In this document: one piece after another, positions 27,939 through 31,738 of the stretch
Position numbering within the stretch: position 1 is the stretch's first letter
How the letters are laid out: each line of letters opens with the position of its first letter
From: Escherichia coli
Lineage (GTDB): Bacteria; Pseudomonadota; Gammaproteobacteria; Enterobacterales; Enterobacteriaceae
NCBI RefSeq assembly: GCF_003334355.1
Contig: NZ_QOWP01000002.1
Length of the DNA stretch: 64,000 bases
Direction: 5' to 3' (one strand)
Translations under genes and position numbers: made by a program
Notes under the pieces: generated by a model
Database searches by the model: none
The model's input: only the letters and a program-made list of their open reading frames with translations
What the model was told of the DNA's origin: nothing

Positions 27939-28166
27939 GTGATGAATCAGACATACATTCCATCATGCTTGAGAAATCTGCCAAAGCAGAAAGCAAAGCC
28001 CCGCAAGCAAGCCATAAAGGACGCTAAGTCAGAGGTTATTGATAAAGCAATACAATTGCTCAGGGAGGAGTTAAGAAGTGGCAAGCTCGAAGGAATGATG
28101 ATGCCCTATCAGCGCGGATATCTATCGGCGATTAGTAAGTTGGAAGTATTGAAGAGTGAATTATGA
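27939..28166 (+). CDS. hypothetical basic protein
   Basis: 75 aa ORF in early-left operon. Confidence 0.35.
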   Translation: MMNQTYIPSCLRNLPKQKAKPRKQAIKDAKSEVIDKAIQLLREELRSGKLEGMMMPYQRGYLSAISKLEVLKSEL

Positions 28167-28221
28167 ACTACCTGGAATTTCCGGATGGTTCATTGTTTTG
28201 GCAGCAAGCATAGAGGTGAAT

Positions 28222-28518
28222 ATGGAATTCAAAGGTACTAAAGGTAAGTGGGAAATAATGATGGATGGCGATGAGATTAAAATCATCCAGGCAGACTCAC
28301 TTGAAAATGGCGCAGGCTGGCGTTCGTATATTGCAATCTGTGAGGAAGTTCAATGCATTGAAGATGCCAATCTAATAGCGGCAGCACCTGAACTTCTCGA
28401 AGCACTTCAGTTATTACTTAAGCAATCCAAAAATAGAACAACGACAACATATCCAGAATGGTATGGAGCTGTTAATAAAGGTTTTGCAGCAATCATCAAG
28501 GCTCTGGGAGGTGAGTGA
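28222..28518 (+). CDS. hypothetical protein
   Basis: 98 aa from ATG with GAGGTG SD. Confidence 0.35.
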   Translation: MEFKGTKGKWEIMMDGDEIKIIQADSLENGAGWRSYIAICEEVQCIEDANLIAAAPELLEALQLLLKQSKNRTTTTYPEWYGAVNKGFAAIIKALGGE

Positions 28519-28718
28519 TGTGCGAGTTTTACGAAGCAGATATCAAACGCCCAGAAATGGCAAGTGATGCGACATTACGTGATTACTTCGCGGCAAAGGC
28601 TATGCAAGCAATGATTAGCAATCCATCGATTATCGATAATGATTCTGATGGAGCTGTTAATTATGCAGCAAGCGCTGCATATAAGTTTGCAGACGCAATG
28701 CTCAAAGCTCGCGAATAA
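28518..28718 (+). CDS. hypothetical protein
   Basis: 66 aa, start overlaps previous stop, GGGAGG SD. Confidence 0.35.
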   Translation: MCEFYEADIKRPEMASDATLRDYFAAKAMQAMISNPSIIDNDSDGAVNYAASAAYKFADAMLKARE

Positions 28719-28813
28719 GCACTGTGTATTCATTCCAACGAGTGAATACACGGAGCAATGTCGCTCGTAACTAAACAGGAGCCGACTTGTTCTGATTATT
28801 GGAAATCTTCTTT

Positions 28814-28837
28814 GCCCTCCGATGTGAGGGCTTTTTT
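28814..28837 (+). terminator. rho-independent terminator (GCCCTC-CGATGT-GAGGGC + T6), preceded by 9-bp perfect hairpin at 28724-28751
   Basis: Stem-loop and T-run read directly. Confidence 0.45.
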
Positions 28838-28903
28838 ATATGCATACCAATAACGCTTCACTCGAGGCGTTTTCGTTATGCAATCAAACAGAAGGAGCAT
28901 CCT

Positions 28904-29074
28904 ATGCAACAGTTCGCTATTGCAGGGGCGGCATCGGTTCGCCCTTTCAACCCGATTTTATCGGTACAGCATTCACGAAAAAATATTTTAACCGGAGCAG
29001 ACTTTAAACAACCAAGAATGAAAAGTTTGCTCGAAAAGCTTTGGGATATTTTGAAACAACAAGGCCGTCCATGA
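28904..29074 (+). CDS. hypothetical small protein
   Basis: 56 aa from ATG with AGGAG SD. Confidence 0.3.
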   Translation: MQQFAIAGAASVRPFNPILSVQHSRKNILTGADFKQPRMKSLLEKLWDILKQQGRP

Positions 29075-29229
29075 GTTTTACAGATAACTGGTCAGACGAA
29101 GAATTCATTCGTCAGATGAAAGAATTAATCGGTAACGAAGGAGATATTCATGTCACTTGCAACCACAGTGAAGGAGAGCAAGTTACAGAGACGCATGTAC
29201 ACGCAGAAAGCTCTCTGGTATCGCCATAA
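29071..29229 (+). CDS. hypothetical small acidic protein
   Basis: 52 aa, start overlaps previous stop. Confidence 0.3.
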   Translation: MSFTDNWSDEEFIRQMKELIGNEGDIHVTCNHSEGEQVTETHVHAESSLVSP

Positions 29230-29330
29230 TGGTGACCGCGAAGGAATGCGGGTATGCCTTAATTTGTCCCGAGTCGAAGTATTAAATCAGCGTTATTTCC
29301 TTGGGCCATGTCCATTCTGAGAACAATCAT

Positions 29331-29936
29331 ATGAGCAAAGAATTTTACGCAAGACTGGCAGCCATTCAGGAGAATCTGAACGCGCCAAAAAATCAGTACA
29401 ACTCATTCGGTAAATATAAATACAGAAGCTGCGAAGATATTCTTGAAGGCGTTAAGCCGTTACTGAATGGTCTGTTTTTATCAATCAGCGATGAAGTTGT
29501 GTTGATTGGTGATCGGTATTACGTGAAAGCCACGGCAACTATTACCGATGGCGAAAACAGTCATACGGCAACCGCTCTTGCACGAGAGGAAGAAAGCAAG
29601 AAAGGAATGGATTCTGCACAAGTTACGGGAGCTACAAGCTCTTATGCACGCAAGTATTGCCTCAATGGTTTGTTCGGCATTGATGATGCGAAAGATGCAG
29701 ATACCGACGAGCATAAACATCAGCAGAACGCAGCAGCAAAGCAATCAAAACCATCACCTACACCTGAACAGGTTCTAAAAGCATTCACTGACGCAGCATT
29801 GCAGAAAAACACCGTAGAAGAGCTTAAACAGGCGTTCGCCAAAGCGTGGAAGATGCTCGAAGGCACACCGGAGCAGCACAAAGCGCAGGACGTTTACAAC
29901 ATCAGACGAGACGAATTAGAAGGAGCGGCTGCTTAA
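29331..29936 (+). CDS. erf: ERF-family single-strand annealing protein
   Basis: FYARLAAIQENLNAPKNQYNSFGKYKYRSCEDILEGVKP matches ERF N-terminal pattern. Confidence 0.75.
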   Translation: MSKEFYARLAAIQENLNAPKNQYNSFGKYKYRSCEDILEGVKPLLNGLFLSISDEVVLIGDRYYVKATATITDGENSHTATALAREEESKKGMDSAQVTGATSSYARKYCLNGLFGIDDAKDADTDEHKHQQNAAAKQSKPSPTPEQVLKAFTDAALQKNTVEELKQAFAKAWKMLEGTPEQHKAQDVYNIRRDELEGAAA

Positions 29937-30319
29937 TGGCACATTCGATTACTGTAAGACTAAACAAGCCCGCAAGAGAGTTTCAGGCCGGGGAAAATAT
30001 CGGATTCAACATCCGTGCTGGCGTTCAGTATTACGATCGCCAGACAAAAAAGAAAGAATGGACAAACTACAGCGCCGTTGTATTTGCCAAGCCGGGAGCG
30101 CAAGCGGATTACTACCGTAGTGTTCTTGTTGAAGGTGGCATTGTGGAAATTACCGGAGAAAACATCAGGGTTGATGTTTATCAGGGGCAAAATGGTCAAT
30201 CAATCACTCTTGAATTACTGAATGCAAAGATTGGATTTGCAGCTTCAGGAAATGGCCCGCAGCAGCAAAGTAGTAACCAGCAGAACACTCCTGTATACGA
30301 CGATTCCATCCCATTCTGA
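29936..30319 (+). CDS. ssb: phage single-stranded DNA-binding protein
   Basis: OB-fold-like body and acidic C-terminal tail ending DDSIPF; start overlaps erf stop (TAATG). Confidence 0.7.
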   Translation: MAHSITVRLNKPAREFQAGENIGFNIRAGVQYYDRQTKKKEWTNYSAVVFAKPGAQADYYRSVLVEGGIVEITGENIRVDVYQGQNGQSITLELLNAKIGFAASGNGPQQQSSNQQNTPVYDDSIPF

Positions 30320-30342
30320 TTTAGAAAAATAAGGATTTAATT

Positions 30343-30639
30343 ATGCCAGCGCCTCTGTATGGTGCGGATGACCCGCGCCGCTGTTCCGGCAATTCCGTAT
30401 CGGAGGTGCTGGATAAATTCAGAAAAAACTACGATCGAATAATGTCTCTACCGCAGGAAACGAAAGAGGAAAAGGAATTTCGCCACTGTATATGGCTTGC
30501 AGAGAAAGAAGAACGCGAGCGAATTTACCAGACATCAATCCGACCATTCCGCAAAGCCACATATACCCACTTCCCTGAATATATCGACCCGCGCCTGCGT
30601 AATTACCGCTCACGCTATGGCGCTATCAGTAATGACTGA
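30343..30639 (+). CDS. hypothetical protein
   Basis: 98 aa ORF with SD. Confidence 0.4.
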
Positions 30640-30649
30640 GGAATTTACC

Positions 30650-30817
30650 ATGAGAGGACTTGCATACAATCCCGGCATTCTTCCGGCAGAAATGATTATT
30701 CGCCAACGCGTAAAGCCAATGCCATCGAGAGAGGAATTGCTTAAGAGAAATTCTTTTCCATCAGTAAATCAAAACAAATATCTGAATGCGATGTGGCGCA
30801 AAGGAGGCAACCAGTGA
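30650..30817 (+). CDS. hypothetical small protein
   Basis: 55 aa. Confidence 0.3.
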
Positions 30818-31068
30818 GTAATTCAGCACGACTACAGCTTGGTTTTTCACCGCTATCAAAAACTATCATGCTGGCAAAAATGCGCGATGTTGAAGGTGGA
30901 CGTATGCGCGTTGGCAATGATCCAGGTCGTGATGTTACCAATGAGGCTGCTCAATTGGTGTGGCGACTGGTCATGGCTGAAGGTGGTGAGATCGCGTGGG
31001 AGCTGGATGATGGTTCTCGCATGGTGTTGAAGGCAGAAAAGCAGGAGGCAACCAGTGAGCAAGATTGA
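30814..31068 (+). CDS. hypothetical protein
   Basis: GTG start after AAGGAGG; 84 aa. Confidence 0.35.
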
Positions 31069-31738
31069 TTATCAGGCACTGCGTGCTAAGGCAGAAAAAG
31101 CAACGTGTGGCGAGTGGTCGCTCGAATATGGAGAGGAGAGATTTGATGCTGGTGATGCACTAATTCATCGTGAAGTTGTTGGATATCTTCCAATTTGCAG
31201 AATTGAAGGAGCGCATCCTGAAGGCGGTTTCGATGAAGATTTCCAAATGGAACAGCAGGCCAATGCTGAATTCATCACCGCAGCCAATCCCGCTACCGTC
31301 TTGGCGCTGCTGGATGAGCTGGAAAGAAACCAGCAATACATCAAACGCCGCGACCAGGAGAACGAGGATATTGCGCTAACAGTAGGGAAACTGCGTGTTG
31401 AGCTTGAAACAGCAAAATCAAAACTCAACGAGCAGCGTGAGTATTACGAAGGTGTTATCTCGGATGGGAGTAAGCGTATTGCTAAACTGGAAAGCAACGA
31501 AGTCCGTGAAGACGGAAACCAGTTTCTTGTTGTTCGCCATCCTGGGAAGACTCCTGTTATCAAGCACTGCACTGGTGACCTGGAAGAGTTTCTGCGGCAG
31601 TTAATCGAACAAGACCCGTTAGTAACTATCGACATCATTACGCATCGCTATTACGGGGTTGGAGGTCAATGGGTTCAGGATGCAGGTGAGTATCTGCATA
31701 TGATGTCTGACGCTGGCATTCGCATCAAAGGAGAGTGA
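31055..31738 (+). CDS. Ea22-like coiled-coil protein (hypothetical)
   Basis: 227 aa, GTG start after GGAGG; N-terminus [17 protein letters not shown] resembles Ead/Ea22-like proteins. Confidence 0.45.
   Translation: MSKIDYQALRAKAEKATCGEWSLEYGEERFDAGDALIHREVVGYLPICRIEGAHPEGGFDEDFQMEQQANAEFITAANPATVLALLDELERNQQYIKRRDQENEDIALTVGKLRVELETAKSKLNEQREYYEGVISDGSKRIAKLESNEVREDGNQFLVVRHPGKTPVIKHCTGDLEEFLRQLIEQDPLVTIDIITHRYYGVGGQWVQDAGEYLHMMSDAGIRIKGE

Follow-up and report, generated by a model that had tools for sequence, protein, structure and literature searches.

Whether a tightly packed run of very small open reading frames (ORFs) represents genes at all and, if so, what those genes encode, is the question raised by positions 27939-31738 of the 64,000-nucleotide Escherichia coli stretch analysed here (contig NZ_QOWP01000002.1; 'the window'). 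A preliminary description placed this plus-strand array in the early-left operon of a lambdoid phage, named erf and ssb within it, and held that none of the other ORFs could be assigned. As judged by sequence comparison, the array consists of 12 real small genes, about half of which can be named, the remainder falling in conserved phage families of unassigned role. The operon is very probably the PL (early-left) operon of a mosaic lambdoid prophage, and the segment is its promoter-distal 3.8 kb. On the plus strand cI, PL, cIII, erf, abc2, ea22 and torI follow one another up to dsdC, an order that agrees with that in P22, HK97, HK022 and HK542, and to this extent the earlier placement of the array was correct.

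The twelve genes of the array

Genes were called from the list of ORFs, the sequence itself and inspection of the start sites. They are as follows, with the name used for each in the text.

27942-28166, plus strand: p1, 74 aa, basic (net +7); PHROG 5305 at 1.4e-37, full length
28222-28518, plus strand: p2, 98 aa, PF27050 (Phage_P22_Y8K6), the P22 orf78 family; PHROG 1273 at 1.3e-30
28518-28718, plus strand: p3, 66 aa, acidic; PHROG 2201 at 1.5e-18, and also PHROGs 37111, 20565 and 30599
28904-29074, plus strand: divergent CIII-like protein, 56 aa, putative FtsH inhibitor; PHROG 550 (CIII) at 1e-22, full length
29071-29229, plus strand: p5, 52 aa, strongly acidic (net -9); PHROG 2123 at 6.6e-42; homologue of HK75/HK446 Gp33 and HK022 gp42.1
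29150-29320, plus strand: p5b, 56 aa, basic (net +6); PHROG 1723 at 9.4e-36; homologue of HK022 gp42 and Sf6 gp29
29331-29936, plus strand: Erf single-strand annealing protein, 201 aa; PF04404 at 4.4e-43
29936-30319, plus strand: HK97 gp40-type SSB-like protein, 127 aa; PHROG 44 (SSB) at 2.9e-27
30343-30639, plus strand: Abc2 anti-RecBCD protein, 98 aa; PF11043 at 9.4e-60, model positions 1-97 of 97
30650-30817, plus strand: DUF2737 protein, 55 aa, basic; PF10930 at 3.3e-29; equivalent of P22 orf56 and HK97 gp38
30814-31068, plus strand: DUF7446 protein, 84 aa; Pfam family DUF7446
31055-31738, plus strand: Ea22 family protein, 227 aa; PF13935 at 2.2e-35 (residues 2-146)

The density noted in the preliminary description is borne out. 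The 12 plus-strand genes, of 52-227 aa, give a coding fraction of 92.5%, and 185 of the 286 non-coding bases lie in a single terminator-bearing spacer; six junctions overlap (by 1, 4, 80, 1, 4 and 14 nt) and, that spacer apart, the non-overlapping gaps are of 10-55 nt. In the segment, 97% of the plus strand and 47% of the minus strand are covered by ORFs of 50 aa or more, compared with a mean of 22% +/- 9% and a maximum of 54% in 500 shuffled controls. A Shine-Dalgarno (SD) site or a coupled ATGA, TAATG or GTGA start is present at all 12 genes; for p1 the ATG at 27942 is a likelier start than the GTG at 27939, because GAGGT lies 6 nt 5' of the ATG. All 12 proteins match a PHROG profile (E <= 1.5e-18, mostly full length), and there is therefore no spurious call among them. 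The families to which they belong combine invariant motifs with variable linkers down to 35-60% identity. Spurious calls, which the preliminary description had named as the outcome that would undo it, are thus excluded by the profile matches, the start signals and the excess of coding coverage over the shuffles.

The assignments of erf and ssb also hold, through PF04404 and PHROG 44, respectively. The statement that nothing else could be assigned does not: of the ten ORFs concerned it is wrong for those encoding Abc2, the CIII-like protein and Ea22, it is outdated for p5, a homologue of Gp33, and two further ORFs fall in named Pfam families, DUF2737 and DUF7446. By sequence comparison p1, p2, p3, p5b and the DUF2737 and DUF7446 proteins are members of conserved phage families that carry no functional name. 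Other searches added little to these assignments. No NCBIfam match was found for any of the ten proteins scanned, and PADLOC gave only insignificant matches. Searches of the PDB yielded nothing for p1, p2, p3, the SSB-like protein or the DUF7446 protein with single sequences, and nothing for p2, p3 or the DUF7446 protein with profiles. No hydrophobic segment of membrane-span length is present in p1, p2, p3 or the DUF7446 protein. The Pfam scan used two concatenated polypeptides with GS linkers as queries, and the Serglycin matches that it returned were discarded as artefacts of those linkers.

Predicted transcription from PL

The elements that bear on transcription of the array lie upstream of it and in the spacer between p3 and the CIII-like gene.

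25933-25994, minus strand: putR, HK022 type; 98.4% identical to the putR annotated in HK75
27071-27085 and 27093-27108: oL3 and oL2, respectively, mapped from the HK75 annotation
27107-27135, plus strand: PL promoter within the OL operators (-35 TTTACA, 17 nt, -10 CATCAT; consensus scan)
27151-27213, plus strand: putL, cis-acting antiterminator RNA, HK022 type; 100% identical over 63 nt to the putL annotated in HK75
27275-27808, plus strand: HNH endonuclease, 177 aa, in the nun/N position; PF13392 (HNH_3) at 2.8e-14, PHROG 99 at 5e-66
27810-27941, plus strand: N antiterminator remnant, lacking the N-terminus and reduced to the final ~43 codons, among them an in-frame TAG, from comparison of the translation with the P22 gp24 C-terminus
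28814-28880, plus strand: two intrinsic-terminator-like hairpins in the p3-cIII spacer (28814-28831 followed by a T run, and 28852-28871), from a terminator scan

The interval 25555-27217, which spans cII, cro, cI, PL and putL, is 99.6% identical to HK022, and this homology stops at 27217, directly after putL. PL itself is 96.6% identical to the PL annotated in HK75, where it is labelled as similar to HK022 pL. Both sites by which put-type antitermination is recognised, one after PL and a second copy after PR, are present by sequence match. Rfam, which has no put family, gave only sub-threshold chance matches over 25500-33000, and the minimum free energy fold is not distinctive on its own (z = -0.5).

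Beyond putL stands the HNH gene, likewise annotated as an HNH endonuclease in the matching E. coli genomes, and then what is left of N. The translation of this remnant reads RVSRAISLAGTR*KEVEGG...KQVTAR* (asterisks, stops), its DNA is 79% identical to P22 gene 24, and in E. coli GPEC1446 the same stretch is recorded by PGAP as an incomplete N peptide or pseudogene lacking the N-terminus. An intact N with the N-terminal arginine-rich RNA-binding motif was not found at this place, where only the ~43 terminal codons are left. The unit formed by putL, the HNH gene and the truncated N occurs with at least 80% query coverage in 6 of 5426 complete E. coli genomes; it was once found behind a different repressor. 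Terminators are annotated at the place equivalent to the p3-cIII spacer in HK97, HK75 and P22.

The put RNA is reported to act in cis on RNA polymerase, independently of any phage protein, and to suppress terminators many kilobases away (PMC9378689). The operon is predicted to be put-dependent and N-independent, read-through of its terminators being assigned to put because N is a truncated pseudogene. On loss of the HK022-type CI repressor, RNA polymerase would start at PL and transcribe putL, and the put RNA would render the polymerase resistant to terminators, such that it would read past the two hairpins at 28814-28880 with no need for the N protein.

The recombination module and the overlapping p5 and p5b genes

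The central part of the array would constitute a recombination and RecBCD-takeover module of the HK97 type, comprising p5, p5b, the Erf annealase, the gp40-type SSB and Abc2; Erf, gp40 and Abc2 together have been described as the HK97-type Rec module (PMC12315714). Erf is 75% identical to P22 Erf and 99.5% identical to the Erf proteins of HK97 and HK446. Abc2 is 93% identical to P22 Abc2 and matches PDB entries 8B1T and 8B1U, of the complex with RecBCD, at 1.4e-56; it would bind RecC and reprogram RecBCD. The SSB-like protein is 94% identical to HK97 gp40 and 96% identical to HK446 gp31, and it ends in the acidic SSB-type tip (...VYDDSIPF); it has no PDB sequence match and no Pfam SSB match. 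A 2025 survey of lambdoid recombination modules assigned HK97 gp40, which it noted to be experimentally unstudied, to a class 'SSB-1b' on the basis of an AlphaFold 3 fold (PMC12315714), and the oligonucleotide-binding (OB) fold of the SSB-like protein is accordingly putative, resting on a model of a 94% identical protein. The protein would coat single-stranded DNA and recruit partners via the DDSIPF tip.

Directly upstream of erf, p5 and p5b overlap by 80 nt, with p5b in the +1 frame and a conserved AAGGAG 7 nt upstream of its ATG. The 250-bp block that contains them (29071-29320) is common to HK022, HK97, HK542, mEpX2, PhiR12_1 and one E. coli prophage, whatever precedes it. All 30 differences between the window and the HK022 allele fall within 29201-29320; in the p5b frame they amount to eight synonymous and ten non-synonymous codon changes, and in each of the other two frames none is synonymous. 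Since synonymous changes occur only in the p5b frame, p5b is under selection as a protein. Both ORFs are annotated by the curators of HK022 and mEpX2, and p5b is annotated in PhiR12_1 too. In HK97 (L005, locus coordinates 3792-4043) two 1-nt insertions six bases apart fuse the frames into the 83-aa gp42.

The closest guide to the function of p5 is Gp33, to which it is 92% (HK75) and 88% (HK446) identical. The gp33 genes, like that of p5, lie directly upstream of erf; residues 1-45 of p5 are identical to those of HK75 Gp33, whereas the final 7-11 residues of the Gp33 proteins differ from p5. HK75 Gp33 on its own has been reported to trigger the toxicity of the P2 OLD abortive-infection tRNase, as do lambda Gam and T7 gp5.9, and Gp33 was proposed to be a new inhibitor or manipulator of RecBCD (bioRxiv 10.64898/2026.07.10.737580). 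By homology with Gp33, p5 may be a trigger of P2 OLD. We infer by analogy that it may act on RecBCD, possibly as a DNA mimic, with which its acidity fits. HK446 has an OLD inhibitor, Oad2 (gp27), close by, whereas the window has no Oad2 homologue; a Gp33 allele without the Oad2 inhibitor predicts that the phage would be sensitive to P2 OLD. Identification of p5 as the Arf protein of P22 was considered and rejected, in that Arf matches PHROG 2445 only and p5 matches PHROGs 2123 and 17766 only. The two share their position, their acidity and a short (F/W)SDEEFI motif, and a BLASTP comparison gave 47% identity over 17 aa with E = 0.23.

The CIII-like gene, the N-cIII slot and the genes downstream of abc2

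PHROG 550, the profile matched by the CIII-like protein, is matched by P22 C3 as well, the two proteins being 29% identical, and the HK542 homologue is annotated as CIII. The position of the gene is that expected of cIII, being after the hairpins at 28814-28880, abutting p5 and before erf. The product would be expected, with the uncertainty considered below, to be an FtsH inhibitor and a lysogeny factor. No Kil was recognised, the interval between cIII and erf holding only p5 and p5b, neither of which matches a Kil PHROG or PF06301; the HK97-type kil present in HK022, mEpX2 and a related prophage locus (L001) is replaced in the window.

The accessory slot between N and cIII would supply three small soluble proteins. 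The p1 gene also stands after N in L001 and mEpX2, and p1 has no Pfam, NCBIfam or PDB match. It was considered as a candidate Ral and rejected, comparison with P22 Ral giving only E = 0.62 over 17 aa; the Ral sequences listed under the p1 cluster proved unrelated on inspection and were not used. The rows of that table are apparently shifted, since it also places Erf fragments under the p5b cluster and p1-like sequences under that of p3. P22 orf78 matches PHROG 1273 as p2 does, the two proteins are 38% identical over 52 aa, and the PF27050 assignment is a precomputed annotation carried by all close homologues of p2. An AAPxLLxAL motif is invariant in the p2 family; a link through this motif to the Ead/Ea22 N-terminal domain was tried and dropped, hhalign showing no relation. 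The AlphaFold2 (AF2) model of p2, with a predicted local distance difference test (pLDDT) score of 82.6, has a small three-stranded sheet and a long helical hairpin. The third protein, p3, has a conserved core of ~50 residues (TLRDYFAAKAM...AYxxADAMLKAR). This core is shared by 1488 homologues, in most of which the N-terminus varies; neither Pfam nor the PDB gave a match to p3, profile search included. The three genes do not form a fixed cassette, since p2 homologues occur in the N-cIII slot without p3, beside a DUF551 or an HNH gene; prophages of Salmonella and Yokenella have this arrangement. In Salmonella prophages a p2 homologue was seen directly after an HNH_3 gene in the slot.

Downstream of abc2, the transcript would carry accessory genes of the exo-xis type, namely those of the DUF2737, DUF7446 and Ea22 proteins and, further on, ea8.5 and the TorI excisionase. 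The DUF2737 protein is 78% identical to P22 orf56 and 92-94% identical to its counterparts in HK97, HK75 and HK446. DUF7446 is a narrow enterobacterial family, with 38 representative clusters. The structure-based homology search advocated in the preliminary description was run on the AlphaFold models of p2 and the DUF7446 protein, and it found nothing for either, the fold matches being generic or weak, with none specific to p2 and none convincing. A single-stranded DNA-binding fold of the PC4/Sub1/YdbC kind was considered for the DUF7446 protein, for which there is a weak hint at most. In the Ea22 protein, the coiled coil of residues 61-127 is EaD-like (56% identical to P22 EaD), and residues 147-227 match lambda 'Protein ea22' (PDB 8DSX) at 3e-51. 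In lambda and in Stx phages, Ea22 is reported to promote lysogeny (PMC7093339, PMC10834534).

Alternative explanations

Several observations weigh against parts of the account given so far. The CIII-like protein has no match to Pfam PF02061, even at E <= 10, and comparison by eye with the lambda CIII sequence presents an apparent insertion and an apparent deletion at the functional helix; FtsH inhibition by this protein is uncertain for these two reasons. The case for p5 being a protein in its own right is weak: the alleles compared do not differ over the first 130 nt of the gene, and conservation between them is lost in the last ~7 residues. The result with Gp33 comes from a preprint, and the gp33 ORF that was cloned includes the p5b start (bioRxiv 10.64898/2026.07.10.737580). 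The left end of the prophage, with the integrase, lies beyond the start of the window. Further, what is said of transcription depends wholly on identity to characterised elements.

That the small ORFs, or some of them, are open by chance is hardly credible; several are of only 52-66 aa and lack a Pfam or NCBIfam match, but every one has its PHROG match and its SD site or coupled start, the families keep their invariant motifs in distant members, and the coverage is far above that of shuffled sequence. It is improbable, although slightly less so than the frameshift reading of p5 and p5b considered next, that the operon is a silent relic, N having been lost to the HNH insertion, with transcription ending near 28814-28880 and the distal genes unexpressed. 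Such a relic would be in keeping with an N gene of which only ~43 C-terminal codons, interrupted by a stop, are left, and with the two hairpins between p3 and cIII. However, both put sites are intact and hardly differ from the functional HK022/HK75 elements, which are independent of N and act on terminators kilobases away (PMC9378689); moreover, none of the 12 ORFs is broken and all are nearly the same as in the plaque-forming phages HK97, HK542 and HK446, and the putL-HNH-truncated N unit recurs in at least six complete E. coli genomes. The idea that p5 and p5b are a single gene, expressed through a programmed +1 frameshift as an 82-83-aa product like HK97 gp42, is suggested by the fused HK97 ORF, by fused forms of 81-82 aa in databases and by the variation of the p5 tail past about residue 45 between alleles. 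It too is improbable. The two frames are kept in six of seven phage or prophage sequences, covering two diverged alleles, p5b has its own strong and conserved AAGGAG-N7-ATG, and the HK022 and mEpX2 curators annotate both ORFs. The database fusions join at positions that differ each time and come mostly from single contigs, and for this reason we take them to reflect sporadic indels or sequencing errors. The codons at the p5 stop (TCG CCA TAA) do not form a classical +1 shift site, as judged by eye only, and the position of that stop differs between the two alleles.

The preliminary description regarded the array as a reservoir of takeover and anti-defence genes, which is right insofar as such genes are present, Abc2 being anti-RecBCD. 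The possibility that p1, p2, p3, p5b and the DUF2737 and DUF7446 proteins are themselves anti-defence, anti-restriction or superinfection-exclusion proteins deserves mention, though we consider it rather unlikely. In P22 the slot filled here by p1-p3 holds Ral, gene 17 and sieB, and relatives have Ral or an 'anti-restriction protein' in it; an OLD inhibitor, Oad2, lies beside the Rec module in HK446, in what has been called an anti-defence hotspot (bioRxiv 10.64898/2026.07.10.737580). The content of the slot also varies among otherwise near-identical phages, as that of arms-race genes would. Against this, none of the six proteins resembles any anti-defence protein described so far (p1 differs from Ral, and Oad2 has no homologue here), the PADLOC matches are insignificant, the fold searches with p2 and the DUF7446 protein are generic or weak, and location alone is weak evidence. 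From position alone, an anti-restriction or exclusion role for the genes of the N-cIII slot is plausible.

A related proposal, that the unassigned proteins include at least one new modulator of recombination or defence in the host, we hold to be somewhat less likely still. The candidates would be p5, which by analogy with T7 gp5.9 could be a small DNA-mimic-like RecBCD inhibitor sensed by OLD-like systems, p5b, which could be a partner or regulator of p5, and p1-p3, which, in the Ral/gene-17 slot, could have unrecognised anti-restriction or exclusion functions. The six conserved families are reasonable, if unexceptional, candidates for anti-defence screens.

Prophage context

The reading of the segment as the distal part of a PL operon fits its surroundings, which include the following features.

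26160-27032, plus strand: cI, repressor gene, upstream of PL and on the same strand as the operon
31930-32211, plus strand: Lambda Ea8.5-domain protein, 93 aa; PF20735 at 9.8e-47; downstream of the array
32300-32467: 55-aa PHROG 676 protein, followed by a terminator-like hairpin at 32457-32476
32526-32726, plus strand: TorI-type excisionase, the final phage gene; PHROG 66 at 2.7e-8; annotated as torI beside dsdC in L001

The prophage lies beside dsdC in the E. coli chromosome, with the end that carries the TorI-type excisionase adjoining dsdC; at torI the window and L001 are 98.8% identical. Virion-sized ORFs fill the minus strand over 1387-24589, and neither a tRNA gene nor an integrase gene is present on the dsdC side of the prophage. 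The layout at dsdC resembles that of KplE1/CPS-53 of E. coli K-12; int would be at the opposite end of the prophage, beyond the window. Terminator-like hairpins also occur at 32229-32280, 3' of the Ea8.5-domain gene.

Comparison with known lambdoid phages

The architecture of the operon is already known and does not depart from the lambdoid layout. Each of its modules is near-identical to a counterpart in HK97, HK022, HK542 or P22. The whole gene combination is not found in one piece among 5426 complete E. coli genomes, the best coverage being 62%; a combination unique in this sense is normal for phages and reflects ordinary mosaicism.

Lambda is represented in the exo-xis part, by the C-terminal domain of Ea22 and a full Ea8.5-domain protein; orf60a, orf61, orf63 and orf73 of lambda exo-xis were not seen in the window. 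In contrast to lambda Ea22, the Ea22 protein of the window has N-terminal and coiled-coil parts of the P22 EaD/Ead type and is, therefore, a domain mosaic. The PL operon of P22 has the order 24, ral, orf78, orf87, 17, c3, kil, arf, erf, abc1, abc2, orf56 and ea genes. The window has the same functional order and shares with it the orf78 family, the C3/CIII family, Erf (75%), Abc2 (93%), orf56 (78%) and the EaD segment (56%), whereas Ral, gene 17, Kil, Arf and Abc1 of P22 are all five absent, the Abc1 position being taken by the SSB-like gp40.

The resemblance to HK97 is closer, the order from the gp42 block to the DUF2737 gene being the same (Erf 99.5%, gp40 94%, Abc2 95% and gp38 92%) and a terminator preceding cIII in both. 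HK97 has Kil and a CIII of its own type, gp42 as a fused ORF, and N, whereas the window has an HK542-type CIII with no Kil, two overlapping ORFs in place of gp42, and putL; at the position of HK97 gp37 (Oad2/EaE-like) it has the DUF7446 and Ea22 genes instead. With HK022 the window shares putL and putR and, at 95% DNA identity, the overlapping gp42/gp42.1 pair, Erf, gp40 and Abc2. After putL the two diverge, HK022 continuing with nun and IS903 and the window with the HNH endonuclease, the N remnant and p1-p3. Taken as a whole this is a textbook lambdoid PL operon and, as such, of little importance; its value is for the catalogue of such operons, as an HK022-type put cassette that is predicted to drive a P22/HK97-type set of recombination and accessory genes, with N decayed behind an HNH gene.

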